A DNA stretch of 64,000 bases, taken from a virus. Numbering within the stretch: the first letter of the stretch is position 1; each line of letters opens with the position of its first letter. A program made the position numbers and the translations under genes. This document shows, in pieces, positions 2,054-44,731 of the stretch. The notes below the pieces were generated by a model. The model had not been told where the DNA came from and made no database searches. It worked only from the letters and a program-made list of their open reading frames with translations. The stretch lies in the IMG/VR virus record IMGVR_UViG_3300029554_000001. The stretch is one strand, 5' to 3'.

Positions 2054-4642
2054 ATTGATGTAGATAGTGAGGCTTTAAAACGACCACTTATTTTCCAAAA
2101 TATGCATGATTATTATGGAGATGAGAATGTTTTAAATACTCTTACTTTAAAAACAGAGGGAACAAAATCTACAATTTTAGTGTGTGCTAAAGGGTTTGGA
2201 ATAAATAATGATGATGCACAACATTTGGCAGATTTGGTTCCTTTTGAAAGAGGTTCAAACTGGTCATTAAAAGATTGTTTTTACGGGAATGAAGAAAATG
2301 GTAGAATGCCTGTAAAAGAATTTATTAATGAAGTAAATAAGTACGAAGGGTTGAAAGATACTCTTTTTAAGATTGAAGGACTTATTTGTGGTAGGTCTAT
2401 TCATGCTTCGGCATCTTATATTTTTGATGCTGGATATATTGTTCAAAATAGCAAAATGAGAGCGCCGAATGGTACAACTATCACTGCCTATAATATGGAA
2501 GATTCAGATTATATGGGTGGTTTGAAGATAGACACTTTGACTATTGAAATGCTAGATAAGTTACATACAGCAATAGATTTGCTAATTGAAGCAAAAATAA
2601 TTGAAGATAAAGGAAGTTATAAAGCTAATTATGATACTTATCTTCATCCTGATGTGCTTGATTATAATGATTATAAAATGTGGAATTTGTTAGACAAAAA
2701 CCAAATTTTAGATGCATTTCAATTTGATAGTGCAATGGGACAACAAGTTATTACAAAAACTCAACCTCGTTCTATGTTAGAACTTTCTACAGCTAATAGC
2801 TTAATGAGACTTATGGCGCAAGAAGGTGCAACAGAAGCCCCTATGGATACTTATCGTCGTTATAAAAATAATATTCAATTATGGTATAACGAAATGAAAG
2901 AAAATAAATTATCCAACCATGAGCAAGAAATTATGAAGAAACATTTAGGTAAACTTTATGGGGTTGCTGATACTCAGGAAAGTATTATGGAAATGAGTAT
3001 GGACCCTGAAATAAGCGGGTTTGATGTAGTTCTTGCGAATAAGCTTAGAAAATCGGTGGCCAAAAAAAAGAAAGATTTGATTGCTGCTGTTCATGAAAAA
3101 TTTTACAAAAAGGGCGCAGAATTAGGCACTTCAAAAGAACTGCTTAATTATGTTTGGGATGTACAAATTAAAAGACAGCTCGGATATTCTTTTTCAAAAA
3201 ACCATTGTATGCCCTATACAGCCATTTGTCTTCAGTGTATGAACATTGTACAAAAATATGGGGCGTTATATTGGAATTGCGCTTGTTTAATTGTTAATAG
3301 TGGAAGTACAGATGAAGAAAATGTTGATAACAATAGTGGCGTTAACTACGGTAGAATTGCTAAAGCTATGGGCAATATGATTAATGCTGGCATTAAAATT
3401 TCTTTACCTGATATTAATCGTGCTCGTTTTGGTTTTTACCCTGACAAAGACAGCAATGAAATTATTTATGGCTTAAGACCTATTCAGGGATTAGGAGGGA
3501 AAATAGCTAAAGCAATCGTAGATAACAGACCTTATGCCTCAGTTGAAGATTTTTATTCTAAAATGCAAGAATTTAAAGAGTCTGCAAAAGAGAATAAGTT
3601 TGGCGATACGGCTATGATTTCTCTTATCAAAGCGCGGTGTTTTGATAATCTTGAGAAAAAAGATAGAAGAGCAATTATGGAAGGCTTTATTAGGATTATT
3701 TCAAGTCCTGTTAAGTCTCTTAGTATGCCAAATATAGAAGATTTGGCAAATCTTGATTTATTAACTGAAAATCAAAAAAAGTTTGAATTAAGATTATATA
3801 GATTTAGAAACTATGTTTTCCAGAAAAAATTCTTTTATAAACAAATAGGTAAAAGTGCAAGTACAGCTTATTATATCCTTGAAAATAAATTTGCATGGCC
3901 ATTCTTTGAAAAATATTTCCTTAATGACATGATTGATAAAAAAGATTACGACTGGAGCGATGAGGGACAAAGAGTTGTTAAAAGAGGTAGTTTAGACCGA
4001 GTTTTTAATAAACTCATGGCAGATTTTAAAGATGATGTCTTAAGTGACCCTAAAATGCTTGCGGCTGTAAATGAAGCAAAATTTAAGATGGTATGGGATG
4101 AAAAAGCGACGGGGAATCTGTCTAAATGGGAAATGGATTCTATGTGTTATTATTATCATTCTCATGAGTTGTCAAAAGTAAATAAAGAAAAATATAATAT
4201 AATTAATTTTGAGGATTTGCCTCCTGATGGACCAGTTGTTCAAACTTACCTGTATAGAGGACAAGAAAAGAGTCGTTTTGCATTAAGTAGGATTTGTGGA
4301 ACTGTATTGGATAAAAATAAAAATAAGAATACTGTTGATTTATTAACTCCAACAGGGGTAGTAACTTTAAAATTTTATAAAGGTGCTTTTAATTTTTACG
4401 ATAGGCAATTGTCGAAAGATAATGAAGATGGAACAAAGACCGTAATTGAAAAGTCTTGGTTTTCCAGAGGTAATAAGTTATTGATTACTGGTTATAGACG
4501 TGATACACAATTTGTTCCTCGTAAATATTCTGACAGTTTATATAAACATTCTGTTCAATTAATTAAAAGTATTGATGATAATGGCGAGTTAGTTTTAACA
4601 TCGGATAGAGCGGATAAAGAAAGGGAGGAAAATGAGTTCTGA
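2054..4642 (+). CDS. DNA polymerase III alpha-type replicase, exon 2
   Basis: In frame with exon 1 after intron removal (IDVDSEALKRPLIFQNMHDYYG matches DnaE DxDF....YG). An 860-codon ORF ending in TGA. Confidence 0.85.
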   Translation: MDVDSEALKRPLIFQNMHDYYGDENVLNTLTLKTEGTKSTILVCAKGFGINNDDAQHLADLVPFERGSNWSLKDCFYGNEENGRMPVKEFINEVNKYEGLKDTLFKIEGLICGRSIHASASYIFDAGYIVQNSKMRAPNGTTITAYNMEDSDYMGGLKIDTLTIEMLDKLHTAIDLLIEAKIIEDKGSYKANYDTYLHPDVLDYNDYKMWNLLDKNQILDAFQFDSAMGQQVITKTQPRSMLELSTANSLMRLMAQEGATEAPMDTYRRYKNNIQLWYNEMKENKLSNHEQEIMKKHLGKLYGVADTQESIMEMSMDPEISGFDVVLANKLRKSVAKKKKDLIAAVHEKFYKKGAELGTSKELLNYVWDVQIKRQLGYSFSKNHCMPYTAICLQCMNIVQKYGALYWNCACLIVNSGSTDEENVDNNSGVNYGRIAKAMGNMINAGIKISLPDINRARFGFYPDKDSNEIIYGLRPIQGLGGKIAKAIVDNRPYASVEDFYSKMQEFKESAKENKFGDTAMISLIKARCFDNLEKKDRRAIMEGFIRIISSPVKSLSMPNIEDLANLDLLTENQKKFELRLYRFRNYVFQKKFFYKQIGKSASTAYYILENKFAWPFFEKYFLNDMIDKKDYDWSDEGQRVVKRGSLDRVFNKLMADFKDDVLSDPKMLAAVNEAKFKMVWDEKATGNLSKWEMDSMCYYYHSHELSKVNKEKYNIINFEDLPPDGPVVQTYLYRGQEKSRFALSRICGTVLDKNKNKNTVDLLTPTGVVTLKFYKGAFNFYDRQLSKDNEDGTKTVIEKSWFSRGNKLLITGYRRDTQFVPRKYSDSLYKHSVQLIKSIDDNGELVLTSDRADKEREENEF

Positions 4643-7097
4643 ATTCGTTGAAGAAAAATTCATAAAGATAAAAGCGTCTCATTCTAAGACCCTTTATCCG
4701 AGTGCTGGAATTGGGTCAGACGGTAAAAATTGGGGAATAGTTTCTTGGAATATTCTTGAGGTAGAACAAGGGACTCCTACCATGAGTGTTTATGGTGAAG
4801 TTACTTTTACGGGAGAATACACAGATGGAATTGACCCCAATTCTGCCTATGTGTTATTAGGCAAAGAGGTTGAGCATCCCAAATATGGTGTTCAATATCA
4901 ATTAATTTATTATAATAAAGATATTGATTTTTCTAACCAGAAGAATCAAAGAGCTTTTTTAAGAACTTTTTTATCAGAAGGTCAAATGGATGAGTTGTTT
5001 GCTGTATGCGATGACCCATTACAAGCTATTGCAGACCATGATATAGAAACTTTAAAGAAAGCTAAAGGTATTGGAGATTATATTTCTAATTGTATTATTG
5101 AGCGTTTCGAAGCCAGTAAAGATATGTCTACTGTATATTTAGAGCTTGATAAGGTTGGTTTTTCTCCAAACTTTATTTCTAAACTAATTGAAAAATATAA
5201 AGCTCCACAAAAGGTAATTGATATTGTAAAAAACAATCCTTATCAGTTAGTAAAAGATATTAAAGGAGTAGGATTTTTTACTGCGGATAAAGTGGCTTTA
5301 AGGTCAGGTTATAAAACTTATGACACAAAGAGAATTAAATCTTATATCTTATGGTATCTTGATGCCCAAGGAGAAGAAGGCCATTCTTGGGTGTCCGCTG
5401 GTGAATTAATGGGCTCGTTATATGAAGACCTTGGCGGAAAACAAAGTTTAATAGTAGAAGATGAAGATGGTAATCTTGTAAACAATGTTGGTAAAGCTAT
5501 TAAAGAACTTCAAGATGAGGAGTTAATTCGTGTTGAAGAGGGCGATACTAAATCAGGTCGAAGAGTTTATTTAATGAGCTTTTGGAATCTTGAAAAAGAT
5601 ATTGCTTATCATCTTAAAAGATTACTTCAAGGTAATAATTATTTTGTTGCTAATGATTTTGAAGAGAAAATAAAAAGAGCAGAAGAGAAACAAGGTTTTC
5701 AGTTTACTCAAGAGCAAATAGACGGAATTAAGCTGGGAATTGAAAAACAAGTTTGCGTAATTTCTGGTTTAGCTGGTTCTGGTAAAAGTTCGTTAGTTAC
5801 AGGTATTTTATCTGTACTTGATGAATATACTTTTGCTCAATGTGCTTTAAGTGGTAAAGCGGCGGCAAGATTACAAGAAGTTACTGGCAAAGAAGGTTTT
5901 ACTATTCACCGACTTCTTGGATATACTGGTGGTTGTGGTTTTTCTTATGGAGAAGATAATCCATTACCTTATGATATCATTATTTTAGATGAAGTTAGTA
6001 TGGTGGGTGGAGAAATTTTTCTCGATTTAATTAGAGCAATTCCCACAGGCAGTAAACTTTTAATGCTTGGTGATATGGGACAGCTTGAATCTATTGGTTC
6101 TCTTAATTTAGCTGCGGATATGATTAATAGCAAAGAAATTCCTACTGTTGAACTTAAAGAAGTACATAGACAAGCAAAGGCTTCTGGTATTTTAACTACC
6201 GCTTATAATGTAAGAAATGGTATTCAATTATATCAAGATACTGATTATGAAGGTGTTGAAATTCGCGGAGAACTGAAAGATATGGTACTTGATATTAGAA
6301 ATGAAAAAGATGATGATAGAAAAGATACCATTGCTTATTTTGAAAAATATTTTAATAGCCCTCTTGTAAATGGTGACATTGAAAAAATTCAAATTATTTC
6401 TCCTGTGAAAGAACGTGGAGATGCTTGTGTTCACAATTTAAATCTTGATATTCAAAAATTAATTAATCCTGTTGATTTGAATGAATCTCGTCCAAGAATT
6501 TACGTTCAAAAGATGAAAGATGCTTCTGGAAATGACAGGTCTTTTTGGATTCAAGAAGGTGATAAAGTAATGTGTATTAAAAACAATTATAAAGTTTTTG
6601 ATACAAGTGGAGCACAAACAGCTATGTATAATGGGTGGACTGGTGTAGTTACAAGTATTGATTATGAAAATGCCATCGTTGATTTCGATTTAGGAGATGC
6701 ACCTATTATTTTAAAACACAAAGAAGTTAAGGAACATTTAATTCTAGGATATGCTTGTACTACTCATAAATATCAAGGTTCTGGTTGCCCTGTAATTATT
6801 GGAATAATAGATTATAGTACTCCTCCAATGATGCTTTGTCAGCAACAGATTTACACTTTATTAACCAGAGCTAAGAAATTGTGTGTACTTGTAGCTCAAA
6901 CTAAAGCCTTACGACGTTCTATTGATACAAATTTTGTTTCAACAAAAAGAACATTCCTACCTGAATTTTTGAAGTAGGAATACAGATAGCTTAGAGAATA
7001 GTATAATGTGCTTCATAGAAAAGAAGATGAAGAGCGTAGAACTTTAATTAGGCAACTAAAAGATTGGAAAGAAAAAGATGAAGTACAAGAGGAATAA
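4632..7097 (+). CDS. RecD/RecD2-like SF1 DNA helicase
   Basis: Walker A GLAGSGKSS, Walker B IIILDEVSMV, GDMGQLESIG, and C-terminal YACTTHKYQGSG / LLTRAKK. The track stop at 6975 is TAG. Reading 3 TAGs (6975, 6987, 6999) as sense extends 40 codons to TAA 7095-7097, which lies inside a terminator hairpin. Confidence 0.85.
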
Positions 7098-7111
7098 TTT
7101 TTATTATCCTC
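7089..7111 (+). terminator. Intrinsic terminator-like hairpin abutting the next promoter
   Basis: GAGGAATAAT-TTTT-ATTATCCTC, immediately followed by TTGACA. Confidence 0.55.
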
Positions 7112-7140
7112 TTGACAACTTCATTTGATTATGTTATTAT
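7112..7140 (+). promoter_or_regulatory. sigma70-like promoter
   Basis: TTGACA (7112-7117), 17 nt spacer, TATTAT (7135-7140). Confidence 0.6.
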
Positions 7141-7163
7141 ATGAATGATTCAAAGGAGTAACT

Positions 7164-7610
7164 ATGAATCGAGAAGAACGTAGAGCGGTTGTAAAGAAGC
7201 TCACTAAAAAAGGTTTAACAAAAGAAAGCGCTATTACTTTTGTTAAAAGAATGGACAGTATTACCACCAATCCCATTACTGCATGGGAGGGTGAAAAAGT
7301 AACTTTAGATTATAATCGAATTATTACCTATCCAGATTGGAAACAAATGAGAGAAGATTATAGAAATTGGGTTACTGAACACAAAAATGATATTTTTACA
7401 GTTGAGTTTGACTCTTTGAAAAAAGAAAGACAAACTGCTGATTATAATAGCCTTGTTCAATTTGTAGAAGATGAAACTAAACCAAAATGGCTGTTTTGGG
7501 CAGGAGATTTAATTCCTGTTGAGGGACAAACAAGACCTGATACTGATAAAGAAAAGTTAGTAAAAGAATTCAACGAGAAGATTGATAGTATTCTATCTAA
7601 GATGGAATAA
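7164..7610 (+). CDS. Hypothetical protein
   Basis: 148-codon ORF with RBS AAAGGAG upstream. No family recognised. Confidence 0.7.
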   Translation: MNREERRAVVKKLTKKGLTKESAITFVKRMDSITTNPITAWEGEKVTLDYNRIITYPDWKQMREDYRNWVTEHKNDIFTVEFDSLKKERQTADYNSLVQFVEDETKPKWLFWAGDLIPVEGQTRPDTDKEKLVKEFNEKIDSILSKME

Positions 7611-7621
7611 GGAGGACAAAA

Positions 7622-8587
7622 ATGGAACATACGAATTTTATGATGATGATTGGAGTTGTTGCAAGTGGTAAATCCACTCTTGCTCAAAATCTCAAAAATA
7701 TGCTGACTAAAATGGGTCAGCCTACAATGATTGTTTCATCGGATGAAATTCGTGAAACTGTTTTTGGAGATGTAAACGACCAGACTCATAATGACGAGGT
7801 TTTTAAGGAAGTTCGTCGCCGTATTAACAATTGCATTGATAAAATGAATGTTATTGTTGATGCAACTAATATTAATGTTAAATCTCGTAAGAGCTTGTTG
7901 GATATTGTTCGCAATAAGGAGAATGTTACTAAAGTAGCTTATGTTATGACTACTCCCGTTGCTGTTTGTAAAAGACAGAATAAAGCGAGAACTCGTACAG
8001 TTCCCGAAGAAGTTATTGACAGACAGATTGGCAAGTTTGAAATTCCTTTTTATGAAGAAGGTTTTGATACAATTAATTTAATTGGTTGGAATTTTAATCA
8101 GTTTGAAGTAATTGTCCCTCAGTCTAATTGGACTACTGATGATGATTATATTATGAGTTTGATGAAGGGCTTTGACCAGAAAACTTGTCATCATAAGTAC
8201 ACTTTAGATGAACATTGTAGAATTTGTGCCGAAGAAGTTGCTAAAAGAACTGATGATAAGATTCTTTATAGAGCTGCACAAATTCATGACTTAGGCAAGT
8301 TAACTACTGGACAGCCCAAGGAAGATGGTTCTGGAGATTATAGATATTATAGTCATCATAATGTAGGAACGTATGACCTTTTAGCAAATCTTGATTGTAT
8401 TGGATTTACTAACATGGACGATATCTTAAAATGTCTGTTTTATGTTAATTTTCATATGCTTCCATTCTTTCTTGAAACTGAAAAGTCTAAATCTAAATGG
8501 GAAAAGATTATGGGAAAAGAAAACCTTGATAAGCTTTTTTTGTTTAACGAATGCGATAAAATTGCAAGTGGGACTTCTGAAAAATAA
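7622..8587 (+). CDS. Polynucleotide kinase-like P-loop domain fused to an HD phosphohydrolase (RNA end-healing enzyme candidate)
   Basis: N-terminal GVVASGKST P-loop, SSDEIRE and DATN (Pnk/AAA_33-like). C-terminal HHKYTLDEHC...QIHDLGK...YYSHHNVG (HD motif). Sits directly upstream of the RNA ligase. Confidence 0.75.
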   Translation: MEHTNFMMMIGVVASGKSTLAQNLKNMLTKMGQPTMIVSSDEIRETVFGDVNDQTHNDEVFKEVRRRINNCIDKMNVIVDATNINVKSRKSLLDIVRNKENVTKVAYVMTTPVAVCKRQNKARTRTVPEEVIDRQIGKFEIPFYEEGFDTINLIGWNFNQFEVIVPQSNWTTDDDYIMSLMKGFDQKTCHHKYTLDEHCRICAEEVAKRTDDKILYRAAQIHDLGKLTTGQPKEDGSGDYRYYSHHNVGTYDLLANLDCIGFTNMDDILKCLFYVNFHMLPFFLETEKSKSKWEKIMGKENLDKLFLFNECDKIASGTSEK

Positions 8588-8622
8588 TTCAGAAGATAAA
8601 AATTAGTAAAGGAGAGTTTAAG

Positions 8623-9981
8623 ATGAATTTTCATTTTAAGAAAGAGTTTCTTTGGCATCCTCTTTATGAATATGTTATGACTGTTAAAAGAAAGTATATT
8701 CAATCTTATACTCTCCTTAACAACGAACCTTGTCCTGAAAATTACAATTTTAATGATTGGCTCGACAGAATTTTTGAGGCGTGGGAGAATATTACTCCTA
8801 AACTTAATGAAAAGTTGAGTAAGATTTTTGACCCTCTTCAGATTACTTGTTATGACCATTATGTACTTTTTAAGTATAAAGGTTTTATTGAATTGTCTGA
8901 TGATTATGATTTAAATTCTTTTTTTGAATTATATGATGGTCTTTATAGGGAATGTCGTTCTTGTGTCTTTGATTTAAAGAATGACGAAATTGCTTTGGCT
9001 TCTTTGGCAAAGTTTAAGAATTATGGCGAGGATGATGGTGATTGGTCTCCTAAAAAAATTAGGTCTAAATATCATTTTGCTCATGCAGTTTTTATTACTA
9101 ATAAACTTGATGGTTCTTATCAGCAATATAGATATATTGCAGAGGAAGACAGAATTTTAGGTTCTGGTTCTCAGGCATTAGACCCTGTAGAATCTTGGAG
9201 ACTTGCGGCGGGTTATAAACTTTTATCTGAGGGACAAAAAGAATTAATTAGGGATTACCCTGATTACACTTTTATTTTTGAATATATTTCTCCAAAAAAT
9301 CCCATTGTTGTTAAGTATGATGAATCTCAAGAAGGATTGTATTTACTTGCGGCAAGGGATGTTAAGGATGGCAAGGAAGTTTCTTTTGATATTCTTAGTG
9401 ACATGGCTGAGGAATATGATTCTAAAATGACTCAATGGTATTATAATGCTACTTTGTTTAGTGTTTTAGCCGATACCGATAATTATCTTTCTTCTGAAAA
9501 AGAAGGTTGGGTAGTTGATATGGTTGATGGATATAAAAATCATTTTAGATGCAAAATTAAAACATCAGATTATGTCTTGATACATAAAGCATTATCTAAA
9601 AATATATCTCCTAACGCAGTTATTAATGCTATTCATGAAGATAGATTTGATGACTTTTTAGCAAAGTGTCCTGAAGCGTATAGAGAATTAATTATGCAGT
9701 ATTATAATACTGTTCATGAATATCTTAATCTTTATAAAGAGCTTATTGATAAAATTTTAATTAAAGGAAATGCAGAATGTGTAGATTTTTGGAATGATAA
9801 AAAAGAAGCAATGCTTTGGATGGATAAACTTCCCAAAGTGTTAAAGGGCAGAACAAAGACCAAATATCTTGGACAGGAAAATGATTTCTTGTTAAAGAGA
9901 CAGTTTTGCTATAAATATTCTGAAATTACAAAAGCCCTACACAATTTAAAGCGTTTTAAAAATTCTATGGTGGAAGGGTAA
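8623..9981 (+). CDS. RNA ligase, T4 Rnl1-like family
   Basis: Nucleotidyltransferase motifs: I NKLDGS, III FIFEYISPKNPIVVKY, IV EGWVVDM, V RCKIKTSDY. Confidence 0.8.
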   Translation: MNFHFKKEFLWHPLYEYVMTVKRKYIQSYTLLNNEPCPENYNFNDWLDRIFEAWENITPKLNEKLSKIFDPLQITCYDHYVLFKYKGFIELSDDYDLNSFFELYDGLYRECRSCVFDLKNDEIALASLAKFKNYGEDDGDWSPKKIRSKYHFAHAVFITNKLDGSYQQYRYIAEEDRILGSGSQALDPVESWRLAAGYKLLSEGQKELIRDYPDYTFIFEYISPKNPIVVKYDESQEGLYLLAARDVKDGKEVSFDILSDMAEEYDSKMTQWYYNATLFSVLADTDNYLSSEKEGWVVDMVDGYKNHFRCKIKTSDYVLIHKALSKNISPNAVINAIHEDRFDDFLAKCPEAYRELIMQYYNTVHEYLNLYKELIDKILIKGNAECVDFWNDKKEAMLWMDKLPKVLKGRTKTKYLGQENDFLLKRQFCYKYSEITKALHNLKRFKNSMVEG

Positions 9982-9997
9982 CTTTCCACCATTTTTA
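9969..9997 (+). terminator. Intrinsic terminator
   Basis: GGTGGAA-loop-TTCCACC followed by ATTTTTAT. Confidence 0.65.
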
Positions 9998-10054
9998 TAT
10001 ATTATACAATAAAACAGAAACAAATTAAAATTAAACAAAAAAGGATTGACAAAT

Positions 10055-10528
10055 ATGGATGTAAAGATTAAATTGCTGTCTAAGACAGCTAAAATGCCTA
10101 CTAAGGCGCACGAGACTGATGCTTGCTTCGACCTTTATGCTGATTGTCCTGATGATAGTTATTATAGTTGGGATGTTCAGAAAGATGTTGCAGGAATCAA
10201 GATTCGTCCTCACGAAACGGTAAAGGTAAAGACTGGTATTGCAACGGCAATTCCTGTTGGATATTGGGGTGCTGTCTTTGCTCGTAGTGGGTTGGCTACA
10301 AAGCAAAGTTTGCGTCCTGCAAATTGCGTTGGAGTAATTGATGCAGATTATCGTGGTGAATGGATTGTTGCTCTTCATAATGATAGTACTGAAACACAAA
10401 TTATTAGACACGGAGATAGGATTGCTCAAGCTATGATTCTTCCTGTGCTTCCCACTACTTTTGAACAAGTAGAAGAACTTCCCGATACTGAGCGCGGCGC
10501 TGGCGGATTTGGAAGTTCTGGTAATTAA
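10055..10528 (+). CDS. dut: dUTP diphosphatase
   Basis: ACFDLYA, ARSGLA, GVIDADYRGEW and C-terminal RGAGGFGSSG dUTPase motifs. ATG 10055 follows AAGGA. Confidence 0.9.
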   Translation: MDVKIKLLSKTAKMPTKAHETDACFDLYADCPDDSYYSWDVQKDVAGIKIRPHETVKVKTGIATAIPVGYWGAVFARSGLATKQSLRPANCVGVIDADYRGEWIVALHNDSTETQIIRHGDRIAQAMILPVLPTTFEQVEELPDTERGAGGFGSSGN

Positions 10529-10546
10529 AATTTAAAGGAGAAAGTT

Positions 10547-10990
10547 ATGTAGGATTTTTGGAAATTAGCCTTAGAAAATCTTTTGGCAGCTTTGGTGGGA
10601 TTTTCTATTTTTGGCATGGCATATCTTTCTAATGTTAGTTTCTCTTTGTATTATAATATTAAAATTGCAGGAGAGACTTTTGAAAAACAAAGATTAATAA
10701 ATAGCCTTTATAAAATTTTAGCTTTTGCGGGTGGTACAATGTTACTTGTACTTTCTACCTCTTTAATTATTCCTTGGGCAAACAAAAACAATCTTCCTAT
10801 TCCTGCTGAATATAGTACTGTTATTTCAACAGTGGCAACTTTAGGAGTATGTTTATCTGGTTCTTTGAAATATATTTTAGAAGCTTTTAATAAGATGAAG
10901 AAAATTCTGGCTATTAAAGATGAAAATAATACTATTGAAACAGCAAGAGCAAATGCTCTGAAATCTAATAAAGATGTAGAGGGAGAGTAA
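10547..10990 (+). CDS. Membrane protein (TAG as codon 2)
   Basis: RBS AAAGGAG then ATG 10547, with TAG at 10550 in frame with the track ORF at 10583. Multiple hydrophobic helices. Confidence 0.6.
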
Positions 10991-10992
10991 TT

Positions 10993-11535
10993 ATGGCTCT
11001 CCCTAATTATAATAAGCTCGTTATAGGAGATACTGAAACTACTGGATTTAAAGAAAATAGAATTGTTAGTATTGCAATTTTAGTGTATGAAAACGGCAAA
11101 AAAATTGCTGATAAATATATATTAGTAAATCCGTAGACCTAGATTGAAAGTGGAGCATCTAAAGTTAATGGTATCACTTATGATACTATTAAAAATTGCC
11201 CTACATTTGACGAAGTTTGGGAAGAAATAAAAGATTATATGACAGATAGTGTTTGGATTTTTCATAATGCTAAATATGATGCTAACAAAGTAATCTATCC
11301 AGAATTAAAAAGATATCACATTCCAATTCCAAATCATGCTGTTTGTTGTACCTTAGAAAATGCGAAACGTTTAATTCCAAAAGCAGAAGTAGCTAATTAT
11401 AAATTAGGGACTTTGCTTGAACATTTTGGCTATACTTTAGAAAATGCTCATAGCGCAGATGCAGATACTTGGGGTTGTATGAAATTATATAATTAGTTAG
11501 TTAAATTATCTGATGGTAATTTAGATGTTACATAA
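10993..11535 (+). CDS. DnaQ-like DEDDh 3'-5' exonuclease (3 in-frame TAG)
   Basis: Exo I VIGDTETTG, Exo II IFHNAKYDANK, Exo III HSADADTWG. TAGs at 11134, 11140 and 11494 join the fragments in one frame. True stop is TAA 11533. Confidence 0.8.
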
Positions 11536-11780: not shown

Positions 11781-13709
11781 ATGGACATTTCACTTCGTTT
11801 AACAAAAGATTTTGAAAGATGCCTTGAAGATTTAAAAAAGAAATATGGTGAAGATTTCGAATATATTAATGGGGTTCATTCTAGTTAGTTAGATTTTTCA
11901 GAATTCTTAGATAAATTCGTAAATCAAAGCACAATGGCAGATGCTACTATCGACCCTAATGCAAATGCTAGCCATAGAGATATTCGTTCTTTTATGACTG
12001 AAAAGGGGAAGAGTGAAGATAAGCTTTTTGGTTTAAATAAAATTTTCCTTGAAATTAAGAAAAAATGGGGGCTGCGTACTGCTAAAGCTTGGTTAGAATA
12101 GGAATTTAGCAAGGGTTTTTATCTTAACGATTCTGCTACGGCAAGTTATTTTCCCTATTGCTGGGCAAACGATTTAACTCGTTTGGCAAGAGAGGGATTA
12201 TTTTTCCTTGGAGGATATAATAATCAGCCTCCTAAACATTTGGACACATATTTTGATGATGTTATTGAGTTTGTTTCGTTCCTCAGTAACCGTCAATCTC
12301 GGGCCGTTGGTCTCCCAAATGTAATTATTTGGGCTTATTATTTCTGGAAAATGGATATAAAGAATGGGCATTATTTTAAAGACCCAGATACTTATTTAAG
12401 ACAATATTTTCAGAAATTTGTTTACAGATTAAATCAGCCATTCCTTAGAATTGACTAGTGCGCTTTTACAAATGTAAGTATTTTTGACCGTCCTTATCTT
12501 GAATCTTTGTTTGGTGGTTTGGAATTCCCAGATGGGTCTTTCGCTATTGACCAAATTGAAGAAATTATGAAGTGCCAGCGTTTATTTATGGATGTAGTAA
12601 GTGATATTCGCAGTGAAAACATGTTTACTTTCCCTGTTTTAACTTATTCTTTACTTTATAAAGATGGCAAATTTGAAGATGAAGAAACTGCTCGATGGGC
12701 TTGTTATCATAACATTAAGTGGTCTGATTCTAATTTCTTTGTATCTGATAATGTTGGAGTACTTTCAAATTGTTGTCGTTTGCTTTCTGACACTCAAAAG
12801 CTTGATGCTTTTGTTAATTCTATTGGTGGTACAGCATTGTCTGTTGGGTCTTGTCGTGTGAGTACAATTAATCTTATGCGCATTGCATATGAGACTAAAT
12901 TTAATAAAAAGAAATATATTGAACTTCTTAAAGACCGTGTACTTTTGGATTGTAAGGCATTAACTAGTATGCGTCACATTTTAGAGCGCAATATAGAAAA
13001 AGGTTTACTTCCTAACTATCAAGAAGGAGCAGTCGAACTTGACAAGCAATATTGTACTATTGGTATTCTTGGAATGTATGAAGTTATTGATTCTTTTGGA
13101 TTAATTAATACTGACGAGTTTGGTAATAAATATTATACAGAAGAGGGATTGGAATTTGCTTGCCAGATTCTTGATACTATCAATGAAGTAAAAGATAATT
13201 TTGAATGTGATTTTTCTTTTAATGTTGAATCTATTCCTCGGGAAAATTGCGCTGGTGTAATTTGTACCGCAGATAATCTCTTGTTTGAGCAAGATAAATA
13301 TTTTATTTACTCAAATTAGTGGGTCTCATTAACCGAACAATGCACTATTAAAGAAAAGTGTCGTTTAGGAAGCGTACTTGATGAAAAATGTGGTGGCGGC
13401 TGCATTGCTCATATTGATATTGAAAATCGTTTTGCAACAAAAGAAAGTGCTTGGGATATGCTTAATTACATTGCTTCTAAAGGTGTAATTTATTTTGCGT
13501 TTACAACTAAAATTAATGTTTGTGAAGATAAACATTCTTTCATTGGAACTCAAACATGTCCTATTTGTGGAAAGCCTGTAGCAGACCAATATGCAAGAGT
13601 AGTAGGTTTTTATACTCCAGTAAGTAGTTATCAAAAGATTAGAAAAAAGGAATTTAATTTAAGACGTTGGTATAATGTTTTAGATGCAGATTCTATTATG
13701 AAAGGATAA
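11781..13709 (+). CDS. nrdD: Anaerobic (class III) ribonucleoside-triphosphate reductase (4 in-frame TAG)
   Basis: Four track ORFs (12183, 12507, 13458 plus the 5' part) share one frame with ATG 11781. They are joined by TAGs at 11886, 12099, 12456 and 13317. C-terminal Zn ribbon CPICG and glycyl-radical region RVVGFYTP. Confidence 0.85.
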
Positions 13710-15368: not shown

Positions 15369-15442
15369 GTTATGCAGTAGTTGGTATTTTAGTTGTTTGG
15401 GTTGTTTTATCTTTTCTTATTATGAGCACAATTGACAAGTAA
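15365..15442 (+). CDS. Possible 25-aa hydrophobic peptide
   Basis: ATGA overlap with the upstream stop. Sequence MSYAVVGILVVWVVLSFLIMSTIDK. Confidence 0.3.
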   Translation: MSYAVVGILVVWVVLSFLIMSTIDK

Positions 15443-17430
15443 TGGAGATTAATATGAATAATTACGAAAATATTGCACGCATTAAGGAATTAACGAGTTT
15501 GTTAAATAAGTATCGAGATAAATATTATAATTATAGCGAATCTCTGGTTTCTGATGCAGAATATGATAAGCTGTTTGACGAATTGCGTGAATTAGAAACA
15601 GAAGAGAATTTTATTCTTTCAAATTCTCCCACTCAAACTGTTGGCTATGAAACTGTTGATTCGCTAAAAAAGGTTAAACATGACCATTTAATGCTTTCAC
15701 TTGATAAAACAAAAAGTTGTCAGGATTTGCTTAATTTTGCAGAAGATAGAGAAGTAGCTTTATCTATGAAGTTAGACGGTCTTACTATGTCTGTTAAATA
15801 TGAAAATGGCAAGCTTGTTTCTGCTGAAACTCGTGGCAATGGTGTTGAAGGCACTGATGTTCTTAATAATGCCAAAGTTATGAAGAATCTTCCTTTAACT
15901 ATTGATAGCGAAGAAACCCTTGTTATTGATGGTGAATGTATTATTCTTAGAGAAGATTTTGAACGAATTAACGCAGAACTTCCTGATGGAGAGCAATATG
16001 CTACTCAGCGCAACCTTGCAAGTGGTAGTCTTTCTCTTTTGGACAATAAAATTACGTCTCAGAGAGGTCTTCAATTTTGGGCTTGGAGTTTGATTGAGGG
16101 AACTACGGGTAGTTTTAGAAAAGATATGAATAAGCTTCAGTCTTTGGGATTTACTATTGTTCCCTGTATTTATTTCAATGGTGGTAATGTTGACCTTTAT
16201 GGAATTGAAGATTTAACTATTAAATTGAAACAGACTGCTGATAAGAAAGGCATTCCTGTTGATGGCTGTGTTATTACTTATGATGACATTGCTTATGGTT
16301 TAAGTCTTGGTAACACTGGTCATCATTTCCGTAAGAGTTTAGCTTTTAAGTATGAAGATGAAACTGCTGGAACTATTCTTAGAGACATTGAATGGGCAGT
16401 TGGTAAAACTGGCGTAATTACTCCTACTGCTGTGTTTGAGTCTGTTATTCTTGATAATACAGAAGTAAGTCGCGCATCTGTTCATAATATTAGTATTATC
16501 AAGTCTCTTGGTTTGAGAAAAAATTGTACTGTTAAAGTTGCAAAAATGAACATGATTATTCCCCAGATTGTTTTTTGTAACAAAGATGGTGATGCAGATT
16601 TTGAAATTCCAAAGACTTGCCCGTGCTGTGGTAAGCCTACTACAACTAAAATTTCTGAATCTGGTGCTGAGACTCTTTGGTGCGAAAATCCAGATTGCCC
16701 TGAAAAAAATTTAGCTAAGTTTGTTCAGTTTGTATCTAAGCCAGCAATGAATATTGATGGTTTAAGTGAAGCTACCCTTAAGAGATTTATTGATGCTGGG
16801 TATGTTAAGAAGTATGCAGACCTTTATCATCTTGATAAGTATAAAAACGAAATTATTGAGATGGATGGTTTTGGGGAAAAGTCTTATAGTAAGTTAATTG
16901 AATCTATTGAAAAGTCTCGCCATGTTAAACTTGAAAATCTTCTTGTCGCTTTAAGTATTCCCAATATTGGCAAGACAGCGGCAAAGGAAATCAGTAAACA
17001 TTTTAATGGAGATTGGGTGGCTTTTGAAGAAGCTCTTGATTTTAATAATTTTGATTTCTCTACTTTAGATGGCTTTGGTGAAACAATGTCTCAGGCTATG
17101 CATAACTGGTGGAATAGTGAAGATTTATTGTTTACAAATCTTATTTTTGAATTAAATTTAGTTTGGGATAAGCCAGTACAGATTGCAACGAATGAGTTTA
17201 TCAATGGTAAAACTTTCTGTGTTACAGGTGCTTTTAATACCATGAAACGTTCGGAAATCGAAAAGATTATTACTGATAATTGTGGTAAGTTAACTGGTTC
17301 TGTTTCTAAAAAAACTGATTATCTTTTAACGAACGAAGCTAATAGTGGTTCATCTAAAGCTAAGAAAGCCGCTGAATTAGGGACTTCTATTATGAACGAA
17401 GAAGAATTTTTGAAAAGGATTGGAAAATAA
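15442..17430 (+). CDS. ligA: NAD-dependent DNA ligase
   Basis: Adenylation motif SMKLDGLT, Zn finger CPCCG...C..PDC, HhH region, and a C-terminal BRCT-like FCVTGAF...KTDYLL. Confidence 0.9.
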   Translation: MEINMNNYENIARIKELTSLLNKYRDKYYNYSESLVSDAEYDKLFDELRELETEENFILSNSPTQTVGYETVDSLKKVKHDHLMLSLDKTKSCQDLLNFAEDREVALSMKLDGLTMSVKYENGKLVSAETRGNGVEGTDVLNNAKVMKNLPLTIDSEETLVIDGECIILREDFERINAELPDGEQYATQRNLASGSLSLLDNKITSQRGLQFWAWSLIEGTTGSFRKDMNKLQSLGFTIVPCIYFNGGNVDLYGIEDLTIKLKQTADKKGIPVDGCVITYDDIAYGLSLGNTGHHFRKSLAFKYEDETAGTILRDIEWAVGKTGVITPTAVFESVILDNTEVSRASVHNISIIKSLGLRKNCTVKVAKMNMIIPQIVFCNKDGDADFEIPKTCPCCGKPTTTKISESGAETLWCENPDCPEKNLAKFVQFVSKPAMNIDGLSEATLKRFIDAGYVKKYADLYHLDKYKNEIIEMDGFGEKSYSKLIESIEKSRHVKLENLLVALSIPNIGKTAAKEISKHFNGDWVAFEEALDFNNFDFSTLDGFGETMSQAMHNWWNSEDLLFTNLIFELNLVWDKPVQIATNEFINGKTFCVTGAFNTMKRSEIEKIITDNCGKLTGSVSKKTDYLLTNEANSGSSKAKKAAELGTSIMNEEEFLKRIGK

Positions 17431-37146: not shown

Positions 37147-37265
37147 CCCCATTAGTGTAATGGAGCATTCTCGTTAACTGACGTTGAGTAAACACTAAGG
37201 TAGCTCCTTAGTGATAACAGACACATCGGGAGAGGAAGTTGGTTCGAATCCAATTATGGGGTCCA
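37147..37265 (+). tRNA. tRNA-like gene with a 53-nt insertion in the anticodon loop (anticodon unresolved)
   Basis: Acceptor CCCCATT/TATGGGG (one mismatch), anticodon stem TCTCG (37169-73)/CGGGA (37227-31), T-arm GTTGG-TTCGAAT-CCAAT, TCCA. The insert contains an 8-bp hairpin CACTAAGG/CCTTAGTG. Confidence 0.55.
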
Positions 37266-40106: not shown

Positions 40107-40237
40107 GTAGACTCTAACAGCAACTTTACAATCACAAATGCTAAGGACCTGTTTGTTGGAGGTTCGAATCCTTCACTCCCGACCATCGGGAGTTAGCTCA
40201 ACGGATAGAGCAACAGATTTTGTAAAAATGAGTCTAG
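40107..40237 (+). ncRNA. ACAGCAA-stem module 4 carrying a circularly permuted tRNA with encoded ACCA
   Basis: G-TAGACTC-TA-ACAGCAA ... GAGTCTA-G with a second helix TTTACAA/TTGTAAA. Internal order: CCTGT, TTGTT, T-arm GGAGG-TTCGAAT-CCTTC, acceptor 3' ACTCCCG, A-CCA-T, acceptor 5' CGGGAGT (perfect 7 bp), TA, D-arm GCTC-AACGGATA-GAGC, A, ACAGA. Confidence 0.75.
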
Positions 40238-43719: not shown

Positions 43720-43815
43720 GCGGGAGTTAAGGAGAGGCCACCTTACCACATTCCGAGTGTGGGTTAAATCCGTCAAGAACGGTGCTCGCGGGTTCGAATC
43801 CCGTCTCCCGCTCCA
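43720..43815 (+). tRNA. Class II (long variable arm) tRNA with apparent CCG anticodon
   Basis: GCGGGAG/CTCCCGC, D-arm AAGG..CCTT, CCACA-TTCCGAG-TGTGG, about 25-nt variable arm with CCGT/ACGG stem, GCGGG-TTCGAAT-CCCGT, TCCA. Confidence 0.6.
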
Positions 43816-43950: not shown

Positions 43951-44110
43951 AGGGGTGTAGCCAAGCGGTAAGGCAAGGGACTTTCAAGAATTAATTCAAG
44001 TAGAATCCAGTGGATTAGTTTAAAGACTGTTTCGACGGTATATTGGTTCAAGTCCAATATTCTTGACCAGACTCCCTGACTCGAAGGTTCAAATCCTTCC
44101 ATCCCTGCCA
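43951..44110 (+). tRNA. tRNA-Gln (anticodon TTG) interrupted by a 85-nt tRNA-like insert
   Basis: AGGGGTG/CATCCCT, Gln-type D-arm GCC-AAGCGGTAA-GGC, anticodon stem AGGGA (43976-80)/TCCCT (44073-77), GAAGG-TTCAAAT-CCTTC, G73, CCA. Loop halves CTTT (43981-84) and GAC (44070-72) sum to CTTTGAC. Confidence 0.75.
43985..44069 (+). tRNA. Nested tRNA-like gene inside the tRNA-Gln anticodon loop
   Basis: Perfect acceptor CAAGAAT/ATTCTTG, TA, D-arm ATTC-AAGTA-GAAT, stem CAGT/ACTG with a 14-nt loop, T-arm ATTGG-TTCAAGT-CCAAT, then A-CCA. Confidence 0.6.
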
Positions 44111-44595: not shown

Positions 44596-44731
44596 AGGAC
44601 GGTAGCTTAATCGGTTTAAGCCTCCGACTTATCTGAGAGTAGTTTAAAAGTAAAACTGTTAATGTAAGTGCAAGACTTGCCTTTCAGACCAAATCGGAAG
44701 ATTGTGAGTTCGAGTCTCACCCGTCCCACCA
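44596..44731 (+). tRNA. tRNA-Ile (anticodon TAT) interrupted by a 59-nt minihelix insert
   Basis: AGGACGG/CCGTCCC (A1.C72 mismatch), D-arm GCTT..AAGC, anticodon stem TCCGA (44623-27)/TCGGA (44694-98), GTGAG-TTCGAGT-CTCAC, ACCA. Loop halves CTTAT (44628-32) and AA (44692-93) sum to CTTATAA. Confidence 0.75.
44633..44691 (+). ncRNA. Nested acceptor-stem/D-arm minihelix ending in ACCA
   Basis: CTGAGAG/CTTTCAG (7 bp, one G.U), TA, GTTT-AAAAGTA-AAAC, short hairpin, then A-CCA. Confidence 0.55.

Follow-up and report, generated by a model that had tools for sequence, protein, structure and literature searches.

What do two adjacent phage genes do when one encodes a kinase fused to an HD domain and the other an RNA ligase, and do their products act on the interrupted and permuted tRNA genes of the same genome? 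The question arises in a large gut phage from IMG/VR (record IMGVR_UViG_3300029554_000001), of which a stretch of 64,000 nt, here called the window, was analysed. A preliminary description had placed both genes at 7622-9981, and open reading frames were found there on the + strand at 7622-8587 (Pnk-HD) and 8623-9981 (the ligase). The features of the locus are as follows.

7112..7140, + strand: sigma-70-like promoter (TTGACA, 17 nt, TATTAT, with TG), from a consensus scan
7164..7610, + strand: ORF of 148 aa, first in the unit, from the ORF list
7622..8587, + strand: Pnk-HD, 321 aa, predicted bifunctional RNA end-healing enzyme, TAA stop
7622..8086, + strand: predicted 5'-OH polynucleotide kinase domain, aa 1-155 (AAA_33, Foldseek, invariant residues)
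8147..8584, + strand: predicted HD phosphohydrolase domain, aa ~176-321 (PF01966, HDIG, profile, phrog_6931, invariant residues)
8623..9981, + strand: predicted Rnl1-family ATP-dependent RNA ligase, 452 aa, TAA stop
8935..9567, + strand: nucleotidyltransferase domain of the ligase (alignments to T4 Rnl1 and T4-like RnlA, invariant columns)
9568..9978, + strand: all-helical C-terminal domain of the ligase (model helical over aa 315-451)
9967..9992, + strand: intrinsic terminator, 11-bp stem followed by a T run (terminator scan and sequence)

The promoter candidate agrees with the consensus at 11 of 12 positions and is the top site between 6900 and 10700, as a consensus match only. Pnk-HD and the ligase are separated by 35 nt, both have good ribosome-binding sites (AAGGAGGA 5' of the Pnk-HD start and AAGGAGAG 5' of the ligase start), and the terminator overlaps the stop codon of the ligase. 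As read from these signals, the 148-aa ORF, Pnk-HD, and the ligase are one promoter-to-terminator unit (7112-9992). The 148-aa ORF had no match in Pfam or PHROG, and a 146-aa ORF occupies the equivalent position in a related 213-kb contig (L003). The unit is surrounded by replication genes, comprising those for a RecD2 helicase, a dUTPase, Pol III alpha, and an NAD-dependent DNA ligase (15442-17430). A megablast search of deposited phage genomes with positions 7000-10100 returned no match, and relatives surfaced only in protein-level searches.

We consider it probable that the products of this unit form an RNA heal-and-seal system. Computed from the sequences were the domain identities, the conserved catalytic residues, the layout of the operon, and the ligase linkage; that the enzymes are active, that tRNA is their substrate, and that a host nuclease makes the breaks is what we infer from them. 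The N-terminal P-loop kinase of Pnk-HD would transfer phosphate from an NTP to a 5'-OH RNA end, and the C-terminal HD domain, as a metal-dependent phosphoesterase, would strip a 2',3'-cyclic, 3'- or 2'-phosphate to leave 2'-OH and 3'-OH. The ligase would then adenylylate itself on K161, pass the AMP to the 5'-phosphate, and join the 3'-OH to the 5'-phosphate end. By analogy with T4 Rnl1, its site of action would most likely be the tRNA anticodon loop. The most likely role would be to undo the cutting of tRNAs by host anticodon nucleases or similar abortive-infection RNases, presumably during infection of a low-G+C gut Firmicute.

Domain composition of Pnk-HD and the ligase

The kinase had been described as carrying GVVASGKST and DATN and as being fused to an HD rather than a HAD domain, and our searches bear this out. 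The kinase half matched Pfam AAA_33 (E = 6e-21), the bacterial Pnkp model TIGR04075 (5e-19), and, among PDB entries, Clostridium thermocellum Pnk, for which the E-value was 2.7e-12 from one sequence and 7.4e-24 from a profile. It carries the polynucleotide-kinase motif set, namely the P-loop GxxxxGK(S/T) (GVVASGKST, aa 11-19, nt 7652-7678), SSDxxR with the catalytic Asp and Arg (SSDEIR, aa 39-44), DATN (aa 80-83, within VDATN at aa 79-83), and the lid arginines R123 and R125. In an alignment these motifs line up with those of C. thermocellum Pnk, and G11, G16, K17, S39, S40, D41, R44, D80, R89, and R123 are invariant in 33 Pnk-HD homologues. The AlphaFold2 model of Pnk-HD (mean pLDDT 93.4) has the kinase-domain fold of C. 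thermocellum Pnk; Foldseek aligned it to 4gp6 over 159 columns with an rmsd of 1.9 A and a target TM-score of 0.75, and the identity to 4gp6 is 30%. T4 Pnk (1ltq/1ly1) matched the family profile at an E-value of about 0.002-0.007. By sequence, the kinase half is closest to the C. thermocellum Pnkp kinase and is a predicted P-loop 5'-OH polynucleotide kinase. The tRNA-specific kinase PSTK matches it about as closely as C. thermocellum Pnk does, and the fold alone therefore cannot tell a polynucleotide kinase from a kinase with a tRNA substrate.

The predicted HD assignment is weak in the single sequence and firm at the level of the family. In Pnk-HD alone, the PF01966 score (17.7-19.2 bits) falls below the cut-off of 22, and the match to TIGR00277 (HDIG) is weak (7.5e-5). 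PF01966 is on record for many Pnk-HD homologues, and phrog_6931 matches both halves of the protein, with its HD part at profile positions 46-152 and its kinase part at 184-339. The family profile matched the C-terminal region of class-II CCA/poly(A) polymerases (1.5e-7); these regions are, by sequence, the nearest solved relatives of the HD half, in agreement with the initial comparison to the HD domains of CCA-adding enzymes. Residues H190, H191, H198, H222, D223, K226, H245, H278, and D312 are invariant in the 33 homologues. They include the H...HD...D metal-binding pattern of the HD superfamily, with H191, the dyad H222-D223 (aa 222-223, nt 8285-8290), H245, H278, and D312 all invariant; two-metal HD forms have additional histidines beyond this pattern. 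A Foldseek search with the whole Pnk-HD model returned kinases only and no HD-fold match. No match to the HAD (DxDxT) 3'-phosphatase of T4 Pnkp was found in Pnk-HD, the C-terminal half of which is HD. The HD domains of CCA-adding enzymes were reportedly found by Yakunin et al. in 2004 to be active on RNA 3' ends.

The neighbouring gene was said to have all Rnl1 nucleotidyltransferase motifs, and motifs I (K161-x-D-G164), III (E220), IV (E294-G295), and V (K311-x-K313) are indeed present, with K161/D163/G164, E220, E294/G295, and K311/K313 invariant in 32 ligase homologues. In the alignment to T4 Rnl1, K161/G164, E220, E294-G295, and K311/K313 fall opposite K99/G102, E159, E227-G228, and K240/K242. 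The upstream residues R112 and K130, counterparts of the Rnl1-specific R54 and K75 of T4, are likewise invariant and, as in Rnl1, are combined with a helical C-terminal domain. The positions aligned to T4 F77 and K119 differ and are not conserved. The ligase scored above the curated threshold of PF09511 (E = 1.3e-12; 48.5 bits against a cut-off of 28.3) and matched phrog_562 (1.6e-33). A phmmer search of the PDB with the single ligase sequence gave no match, and T4 Rnl1 structures were reached only with the family profile (5e-14). Foldseek ranked T4 Rnl1 first (2e-15) for the AlphaFold2 model of the ligase (mean pLDDT 91.5). The alignment to T4 Rnl1 extends into the helical C-terminal domain, to T4 residue ~313-333; in position this domain, which has no OB fold, replaces the tRNA-specificity domain of T4 Rnl1. 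The score of 56 bits against TIGR02308 misses the equivalog cut-off of 242 bits. By these sequence comparisons, the ligase is a member of the Rnl1 family and not an equivalog of T4 RnlA. The family-match values of both proteins are far beyond chance level.

The label of phrog_562, 'RNA ligase and tail fiber protein attachment catalyst', would suit a ligase whose main job is to attach tail fibres, in the manner of T4 gp63, which is Rnl1 itself. That role is very improbable here, since the label is inherited from T4, the gene is located in an early, replication-type region and not among structural genes, the catalytic residues are invariant, and an end-healing enzyme is always the neighbour of the ligase.

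The points that count against a heal-and-seal function are the sub-cut-off PF01966 score, the missed TIGR02308 cut-off, the unconserved F77 and K119 positions, and the closeness of PSTK.

Linkage of Pnk-HD to RNA ligases in other phages

An RNA ligase gene neighbours Pnk-HD in all 80 IMG/VR loci that carry a Pnk-HD gene, on contigs of related phages, at a distance of at most 150 nt in 78 and one ORF away in the other 2. The partner is Rnl1-type in 27 loci and PF09414-type in 53, and this swap for an unrelated ligase family argues for functional coupling of Pnk-HD and an RNA ligase. The predicted heal-and-seal partnership is thus well supported, being backed independently by linkage to two ligase families (80/80). 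Within a clade of ~215-kb genomes, the Rnl1 gene is immediately 3' of Pnk-HD in 22 of 22 contigs.

This linkage also bears on two other functions for Pnk-HD. One is DNA end repair, in which Pnk-HD would clean 5'-OH/3'-phosphate DNA ends for the NAD-dependent DNA ligase encoded at 15442-17430 and its proximity to Rnl1 would be incidental. C. thermocellum Pnk acts on DNA ends too, the unit is located among replication genes, and the title of the paper on Runella HD-Pnk speaks of a 'DNA/RNA end-healing enzyme'. However, this function is improbable, given that the neighbour is an RNA ligase in 80/80 loci and that a DNA ligase is the direct neighbour in none of the 80; only in contig L028 does an ATP-dependent DNA ligase lie two genes from Pnk-HD, in addition to the RNA ligase of that contig. 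The other is a kinase that acts on a tRNA-bound substrate, as PSTK and KTI12 do, joined to an HD domain that hydrolyses a nucleotide signal, with no end-healing pair at all. While PSTK scores nearly equal to C. thermocellum Pnk and HD domains with many substrates exist, we regard this as highly improbable in view of the constant ligase linkage, the occurrence of both domains in Pnk-HD and in the HD-Pnk type phrog_6931, and the proximity of the HD half to the HD domains of CCA-adding enzymes.

The pair also occurs in cultured phages. Tsamsa-like Joanripponvirinae Bacillus phages encode full-length Pnk-HD at 27-30% identity; in Bacillus phage Sophrita (gp164/gp165) the two ORFs overlap, in the order ligase then kinase, and in Bacillus phage KLEB27-3 (gp190/gp186) the Pnk-HD and ligase genes are near each other. 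Among deposited phage records, none matches the window ligase better than the KLEB27-3 ligase, at 34% identity across 92% of the protein. Since 297 of the 299 features in the KLEB27-3 record are CDS, at most 2 are non-CDS features, which argues that the pair is independent of phage tRNA genes. In Bacillus phages the annotations 'polynucleotide kinase', 'AAA family ATPase', and 'HD-domain containing protein' miss the bifunctional architecture.

The Pnk-HD family comprises 883 clusters at 50% identity. The HD domain is in the C-terminal half in nearly all of the best 150 HD-domain relatives, and a scan of GTDB genomes yielded only two Pnk-HD loci, both likely phage contigs in MAGs. In a family of this size, always partnered by an RNA ligase, one set of enzyme assays would annotate hundreds of phage genes. 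A comparison of jumbo phages reported a kinase and phosphoesterase beside ATP-dependent RNA ligases and read them as counter-defence (PMC7824862).

Interrupted and permuted tRNA genes

The preliminary description had also pointed to interrupted and permuted tRNA genes in the window. These proved to be tRNA-like introns with exact boundaries and no match to a known ribozyme, together with one permuted gene.

40128..40222, + strand: permuted tRNA gene (3' half, ACCA, T, 5' half), putative substrate (acceptor pairing)
43951..44107, + strand: tRNA-Gln(UUG) with an 85-nt tRNA-like intron at 43985-44069, putative substrate (Rfam tRNA)
44596..44728, + strand: tRNA-Ile(UAU) with a 59-nt tRNA-like intron at 44633-44691, putative substrate (Rfam tRNA)

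The tRNA-Gln gene scored 49 bits with the Rfam tRNA model with an insertion, and the intron is located between anticodon-loop positions 35 and 36. The near-identical phages L088, L093, and L096 have a 72-nt allele without the intron, which fixes the boundaries as CUUU/C...ACCA/GAC. In-silico excision of 43985-44069 gives a canonical tRNA-Gln, and the predicted exon-exon junction would be GGGACUUU^GACUCCC. The tRNA-Ile gene also scored 49 bits, with the intron between positions 36 and 37 and a fold z-score of -4.1. Excision from a 7-bp stem through a 4-nt tail (the stem-and-tail rule) yields tRNA-Ile(UAU). The boundaries at 44633-44691 are proposed by analogy; an intron-less allele was not found, and an exact-pattern scan of viral contigs with the tRNA-Ile 5' exon gave no match. 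Blastn searches of deposited phages with both introns gave no useful match. In the permuted gene, ACTCCCG and CGGGAGT, the two acceptor strands, form 7 of 7 pairs across the junction, and the arrangement is kept in 14 of 14 relatives' loci.

ARAGORN at default settings missed the intron-bearing tRNAs, and with introns allowed it misplaced boundaries and misassigned anticodons (Gln was called Glu, and Ile was called SeC). Boundaries and anticodons were set instead by reference to the intron-less allele and by the stem-and-tail rule. Anticodons CCA (Trp) and UCA at 44596 were rejected, as only the Ile(UAU) phase agrees both with the stem-and-tail rule and with relatives' intron alleles.

Across the window and 14 relatives' loci, excision of '7-bp stem ... 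4-nt tail' yields canonical tRNA-Lys, Ile, Gln, Gly, and Glu, and introns are inserted at 32/33, 34/35, 35/36, or 36/37. These varied tRNA species and insertion sites suggest that the excision signal is within the intron and not the exon. Compensatory changes were observed at 7/7 terminal-stem pairs among 12 intron alleles, and a T-arm-like hairpin (5 bp, 7 nt) adjoins the 3' strand and is followed by the 4-nt tail, mostly ACCA. As predicted from these alleles, the introns are covarying acceptor/T-arm minihelices ending in ACCA. An archaeal-type bulge-helix-bulge site was rejected, as loops of 4 nt and 7 nt flank a 7-bp helix, not 3-4-3. The tRNA region had no match at E<=1 to group I introns, group II introns, or self-cleaving ribozymes in Rfam; since the introns match no known ribozyme, a protein ligase would be needed.

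Splicing of tRNAs by proteins is considered a feature of archaea and eukaryotes, and the bacterial tRNA introns of which we know are self-splicing group I introns. It is possible, and proposed here tentatively, that the Rnl1 ligase rejoins tRNA halves after intron excision, as its main or a second role. Mobile acceptor/T-arm-shaped introns ending in ACCA, at varying anticodon-loop positions, would be cut by host RNase P at the 5' edge of the acceptor-like stem and, after the ACCA, by a putative 3'-end endonuclease, and the phage ligase would reseal the loop. Pnk-HD would be required only if a cut leaves a 5'-OH or a cyclic phosphate. The permuted gene at 40128-40222 would be matured by the same machinery, and a repair kit retained for counter-defence would let the introns spread.

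Much of the tRNA evidence favours such a role: the anticodon-loop insertions of 85 and 59 nt seen by Rfam, the exact boundaries fixed by tRNA-Gln alleles, the canonical products of stem-and-tail excision across the window and 14 relatives' loci, the covarying stem, T-arm-like hairpin, and ACCA-type tail of 12 alleles, the lack of a ribozyme match at E<=1, and the conserved permuted gene (14/14). In addition, Rnl1 is the only RNA ligase among the window ORFs scanned, and its gene directly follows Pnk-HD in 22/22 contigs of the ~215-kb clade. Lak megaphages also combine 'enigmatic' tRNA introns with a T4-type RNA ligase (10.1101/356790). However, the pair is also encoded where introns are absent or unlikely, as in KLEB27-3, with almost no tRNA genes, and in a ~150-kb clade in which all 12 tRNAs near Pnk-HD are intron-free. 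The same holds for the enzyme pair of T4. The shape of the introns suggests RNase P-type cuts, the ends of which need a ligase and not a healing enzyme; enzymes of the RNase P or RNase Z type produce 3'-OH and 5'-PO4 ends, for which Pnk-HD would be superfluous. We know of no enzyme established in Firmicutes that cuts exactly after CCA. Furthermore, ~150 kb of the genome outside the window could encode another ligase, and host RtcB could join the ends if these were >P and 5'-OH.

Repair remains the primary reading, because RNase P-type excision would proceed without a need for end-healing and because the pair occurs in KLEB27-3, which has almost no tRNA genes; splicing is a plausible second role. 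It may be, with less than even probability, that Rnl1 does the joining in a hitherto undescribed pathway of tRNA splicing in bacterial viruses, aided by Pnk-HD if a cut leaves a 5'-OH. The link between the pair and tRNA-intron maturation, put forward in the preliminary description as inference, keeps that status and has gained substance. If true, the excision of introns through tRNA mimicry, followed by resealing with a phage ligase, would be a new mode of splicing, which would also account for the 'enigmatic' introns of megaphages. The window supplies exact junctions and natural intron-less alleles for the question of splicing.

Comparison with known repair and splicing systems

T4 Pnkp and Rnl1 repair tRNA-Lys after cleavage by PrrC, and the pair in the window is predicted to follow the same two-enzyme heal-and-seal logic. 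Both ligases fall in one family and have the full set of catalytic motifs as well as a helical C-terminal domain, and both kinases are P-loop enzymes of the same broad clade. The phosphoesterases differ, being HD in the window and a DxDxT HAD phosphatase in T4, and the window kinase is nearer to the bacterial Pnkp type. Compared with T4 Rnl1, the window ligase is longer in its C-terminal domain and has about 45-60 additional N-terminal residues, the alignments to T4 Rnl1 beginning at query residue 62 or 107. Unlike in T4, the two genes are adjacent and in one unit.

The closest solved kinase domain (4gp6) belongs to C. thermocellum Pnkp, which has Hen1 as a partner and is considered here together with the Pnkp1-Rnl-Hen1 system of Capnocytophaga. 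In contrast to the window enzyme, C. thermocellum Pnkp and Capnocytophaga Pnkp1 have a calcineurin-type metallophosphoesterase. The ligase is part of the same polypeptide in C. thermocellum Pnkp and separate in the window, and the Hen1 methyltransferase partner of both bacterial systems was not seen at the window unit.

Fungal and plant Trl1, which functions in tRNA splicing, similarly combines an Rnl1-type ligase (Foldseek 2.5e-11 to 1.8e-9) with a P-loop kinase. Unlike the window pair, Trl1 unites ligase, kinase, and cyclic phosphodiesterase (CPD) in one polypeptide; the CPD, a 2H-family enzyme, leaves behind a 2'-phosphate that is required by the ligase and later removed by Tpt1. Neither 2H nor Tpt1 was detected in a Pfam scan of six ORFs at 4632-10990, nor in 40 further window ORFs of at least 110 aa, among 25 of the 29 Pfam families matched.

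In Lak megaphages, tRNA genes have short introns, some predicted to be tRNA-like, that do not vary from cohort to cohort and that some genomes have and others lack; these genomes encode a T4-type RNA ligase as well, and the Lak report proposes neither a mechanism nor a ligase link (Devoto et al., bioRxiv 10.1101/356790). By this description, and not by intron sequence, the window resembles Lak in its short tRNA-like introns, their presence/absence variation, and its RNA ligase. Unlike the window, Lak genomes match only the kinase half of Pnk-HD.

The HD-Pnk of Runella slithyformis (Munir and Shuman 2017), as described in PMC6097658, has 2',3'-phosphoesterase and 5'-OH kinase activities and is encoded beside a ligase, which sealed none of the substrates tested. 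Like it, Pnk-HD is a fusion of HD and polynucleotide kinase domains, the gene for which adjoins that of an ATP-dependent ligase (in 80/80 loci, the window, and Sophrita). The Runella order, HD then kinase, is shared by the phage family phrog_6931, which matches both window halves. Compared by description only, the window order is the reverse (kinase at aa 1-155, then HD at aa ~176-321), and the partner is Rnl1, or PF09414-type in relatives. Unlike in the Runella locus as described there, Tpt1 and methyltransferase-HIT genes are not found near the window pair.

Judged by sequence, Pnk-HD and the ligase would belong to a known kind of tRNA-repair pair, with a kinase-HD domain order that appears novel relative to characterised enzymes. 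HD would then be a third phage solution for the RNA-repair phosphoesterase, beside the HAD and calcineurin-type enzymes.

The Pnk-HD and ligase genes

The window has a G+C content of 32%, codes almost wholly on the plus strand, and contains no fewer than 19 tRNA genes. The sequences that match it most closely are viral contigs from IMG/VR, with lengths of up to ~220 kb; among them is a 123-kb contig whose Pnk-HD protein is 100% identical to that of the window and which has a second deposit within a gut MAG labelled 'uncultured Clostridium sp.' These matches identify the window as a piece of a large phage that infects a gut Firmicute. The coordinates of the two open reading frames (ORFs) in the preliminary description agree exactly with the ORF list, and the relevant features are as follows:

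7112-7140, sigma-70-like promoter (consensus match)
Between this promoter and the Pnk-HD gene, ORF of 148 aa with no known family
7622-8587, plus strand, Pnk-HD, P-loop 5'-OH polynucleotide kinase with a C-terminal HD phosphohydrolase (321 aa)
8623-9981, plus strand, Rnl1-family RNA ligase (452 aa)
9967-9992, intrinsic terminator overlapping the stop codon of the ligase gene
44935-45005, suppressor-type tRNA(CUA), predicted to read the stop codon TAG

The Pnk-HD and ligase genes are 35 nt apart and each is preceded by a strong ribosome-binding site. Judged from these sequence features, the 148-aa ORF, Pnk-HD, and the ligase look like a single transcription unit. The tRNA(CUA) points tentatively to recoding of a stop codon somewhere in the phage genome; however, the Pnk-HD and ligase genes both end in TAA, and their reading is therefore unaffected.

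The P-loop kinase occupies residues 1-155 of Pnk-HD and belongs to the polynucleotide-kinase clade; it matches AAA_33 (6e-21) and TIGR04075, the bacterial Pnkp family (5e-19). The C. thermocellum Pnk in the PDB was matched at 2.7e-12 by the protein sequence alone and at 7.4e-24 when a profile built from 33 homologues was used, and an AlphaFold2 model (pLDDT 93.4) superimposed on 4gp6 with an rmsd of 1.9 A over 159 columns. Invariant among homologues are the P-loop, the DATN motif, the lid arginines, and an SSD-x-x-R motif, which we take, from the C. thermocellum and T4 enzymes, to contribute the Asp needed for catalysis and the Arg by which the 5'-OH nucleoside is held. Residues ~176-321 form the HD domain. 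Pfam and HDIG matches to this domain were sub-threshold in the single protein sequence, but PF01966 is recorded for many homologues, the family profile matched class-II CCA/poly(A) polymerases in their C-terminal region (1.5e-7), and the pattern H191...H222-D223...H245...H278...D312 is constant across homologues. The fusion of a kinase to an HD domain, as proposed in the preliminary description, was thus recovered by family and profile matches, with the catalytic residues of both domains invariant. A search with the HD half alone against 1.84 billion representative proteins returned 883 clusters, the best 150 of which were nearly all proteins of 290-350 aa whose C-terminal half holds the HD domain. 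This indicates that Pnk-HD is a large family in its own right.

The ligase exceeds the Pfam cut-off for PF09511 and matches phrog_562 (1.6e-33); its family profile matched three T4 Rnl1 structures (about 5e-14), and hhalign against T4-like RnlA gave a probability of 98%. Foldseek comparison of its structure model (pLDDT 91.5) placed T4 Rnl1 at the top (2e-15), followed by fungal Trl1 ligase domains. Essential T4 residues have their aligned counterparts in the lysine nucleophile (K161), in motifs III, IV, and V, and in R112 and K130, none of which varies among 32 ligase homologues. Together with the family, profile, and Foldseek matches, this bears out the earlier assignment as an Rnl1 with all nucleotidyltransferase motifs. 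The C-terminal third is all-helical in the model, as is the tRNA-specificity domain of T4 Rnl1; the ligase differs from T4 RnlA in falling below the NCBI equivalog threshold and in carrying an additional N-terminal helical segment.

Genes adjoining Pnk-HD were inspected in 80 viral contigs that encode this protein. An RNA ligase gene was present within 150 nt in 78 loci, whereas in the remaining two a single ORF, encoding a GIY-YIG homing endonuclease in one contig (L067), lies between Pnk-HD and the ligase. The partner is of the Rnl1 type in 27 of the 80 loci and belongs to a different family in 53; in most of the representatives scanned from these, a PF09414 domain comes after an OB fold of the PHA02142 type. 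Gene order is always kinase then Rnl1 in the ~215-kb clade of the window, and ligase then kinase, with overlapping ORFs, in Tsamsa-group Bacillus phages. That the partner is invariably a ligase, while the kind of ligase varies, is strong evidence that Pnk-HD readies ends for ligation.

tRNA-like introns and the tRNA region

The Rfam tRNA model identified two tRNA genes in the window that ARAGORN missed, each with an insertion in the anticodon loop:

43951-44107, tRNA-Gln(UUG)
44596-44728, tRNA-Ile(UAU)

Three ~98% identical phages encode tRNA-Gln(UUG) as an uninterrupted 72-nt gene with the loop CUUUGAC. One of these (in contig L088) equals the two joined exons of the window in every letter, the other two differ by one base, and five other phages carry an 85-nt insertion. 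The uninterrupted alleles place the tRNA-Gln intron at 43985-44069, between positions 35 and 36. Its first base opens a 7-bp stem and its 3' end comprises a stem strand followed by ACCA; one allele has a compensating stem change from A-U to G-C. The rule of excising everything from the 7-bp stem through the 4-nt tail was tried on each intron candidate that ARAGORN called in the window or in the loci of 14 relatives. It produced canonical tRNAs for Lys, Ile, Gln, Gly, and Glu, with insertion sites at 32/33, 34/35, 35/36, and 36/37. Under this rule, the second case in the window becomes tRNA-Ile(UAU), with a predicted intron at 44633-44691.

RNAalifold, run on 12 intron alleles, predicted a terminal stem in which each of the seven pairs shows compensatory changes, a 5-bp/7-nt hairpin whose sequence resembles a T loop and which abuts the 3' strand of that stem, and a free 4-nt tail. 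The predicted fold is the acceptor/T-arm 'minihelix' of a tRNA, including the discriminator and CCA. The region had no match to intron or ribozyme families in Rfam at E<=1. Across the window and 14 related contigs (L086-L099), the introns are 50-85 nt long with a 3' tail that is mostly ACCA; their site within the anticodon loop varies, and their presence is polymorphic among ~98% identical phages. Contig L091 (IMGVR_UViG_3300045988_166421) encodes a Pnk-HD 100% identical to that of the window, yet the intron-bearing tRNA-Gln gene is absent at the corresponding place, upstream of position 10001. Phages that are nearly identical elsewhere thus differ in the tRNA region, and the window cannot be equated with this contig.

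Further elements of the tRNA region:

36846, 37473, 39052, 39423, 41060, and 41531, T-arm hairpins outside any called tRNA, some without CCA
37147-37265, tRNA-like sequence of 119 nt with 3' end TCCA
38990, 39370, 39605, 40105, 40290, 44140, 44420, 44500, and 44750, repeat element in tRNA-cluster spacers
40128-40222, permuted tRNA gene (order: 3' half, ACCA, T, 5' half)
40330-40385, T-arm hairpin then acceptor-like hairpin ATCTTCT tt AGAAGAT, without CCA
42168-42722, ORF of 184 aa inside the tRNA cluster with EIERKF, reminiscent of the CYTH/triphosphate-tunnel enzyme signature ExExK
43720-43815, tRNA of 96 nt with anticodon CCG (Arg) and a long variable arm (about 23 nt)

The acceptor strands of the permuted tRNA gene are fully complementary, and the gene is kept in the loci of all 14 relatives. 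The hairpin at 40330-40385 has a covarying counterpart, GTCTCCT/GGGGGAT, in one relative (L092). The 119-nt sequence and orphan T-arm hairpins may be more interrupted, split, or decayed tRNA genes. The long variable arm is unusual for tRNA-Arg, and the 184-aa ORF had no Pfam match at E<=0.1. The spacer repeat comprises GTAGAC-N-CTTACAGCAA and, ~60-110 nt on, GTCTAG directly before the next tRNA. Its two ends are able to pair, with covariation in one copy (GTAGAGAC ... GTCTCTAG at 39370/39500), and Rfam has a weak, sub-threshold match to Dictyostelium Class I RNA at 44418-44476 (20.4 bits). The repeat could be a promoter, processing signal, or small RNA.

Other genes in the window:

262-1353 and 2102-4642, DNA polymerase III alpha, in two ORFs
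10993-11136 and 11239-11496, RNase T-like exonuclease, in two pieces ~100 nt apart
12507-13319, NrdD fragment (only profile positions 180-441 matched)
27025-28284, PARP-like ADP-ribosyltransferase with a WGR domain
29521-30354, Thg1-like protein (tRNA-His guanylyltransferase / 3'-5' polymerase family; E=3e-28)
57152-58930, DUF2828/DUF7788 protein of 592 aa

The Thg1-like gene, just upstream of the tRNA cluster, encodes an additional predicted tRNA end-repair or maturation enzyme, and a NADAR-domain protein is present among ORFs >=110 aa. The DNA polymerase III alpha, NrdD, and RNase T-like genes look split; in relatives, such sites are occupied by homing-endonuclease ORFs, and the RNase T-like gene is intact (178 aa) in the related contig L003.

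Potential role in tRNA splicing and relation to known systems

The signal is carried by the intron itself and resembles a tRNA end, which would make tRNA end-processing enzymes the obvious candidates for excision. RNase P would cut the tRNA-Gln precursor between 43984 and 43985, an RNase Z-type enzyme would cut the 3' end of the intron between 44069 and 44070, and Rnl1 would join the exons at the predicted junction CUUU^GAC, spanned by GGGACTTTGACTCCC. After cleavage by RNase P, exon 1 would end in a 3'-OH, and cleavage of the RNase Z type behind CCA would give exon 2 a 5'-phosphate; an anticodon-loop nick with these two ends is the substrate of T4 Rnl1. Trl1 needs a 2'-phosphate at the break, and T4 Rnl1 does not. 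Such ends would require the ligase and not Pnk-HD, which would be relevant to splicing only if the 3' cut leaves a 5'-OH. We consider a need for the ligase in maturation of the intron-bearing tRNAs possible but somewhat doubtful. The occurrence of the gene pair in T4 speaks against splicing as the main role, as does that of Pnk-HD and an Rnl1, separated by several genes, in Bacillus phage KLEB27-3; the record of this phage lists 299 features and numbers 297 CDS, which leaves at most two non-CDS features. The intron is also optional among near-identical phages, and ~150 kb of the phage genome lies outside the window. In our reading, the repair kit is older, and its presence allows introns of this kind to insert safely in the anticodon loop.

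The assignment of Pnk-HD and Rnl1 as putative RNA healing and sealing enzymes is supported, in that it agrees with every computational test run, and the pair makes the hypothesis of tRNA splicing by a phage ligase testable. The sole characterised enzyme of HD plus kinase composition is Runella HD-Pnk, described as a 2',3'-phosphoesterase and 5'-OH kinase with an adjoining ligase gene (PMC6097658). Its domain order, HD then kinase, is opposite to that of the window protein and the same as that of phrog_6931, which matches both halves of Pnk-HD in reverse (HD at profile positions 46-152, kinase at 184-339). In jumbo phages, a kinase and phosphoesterase beside ATP-dependent RNA ligases have been interpreted as countering the cleavage of tRNAs by the host, and HD-like phosphatases are present in a few of these phages (PMC7824862). 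Given that such pairs are already in the comparative literature, the Pnk-HD/ligase pair is a variation on a known system rather than a new kind.
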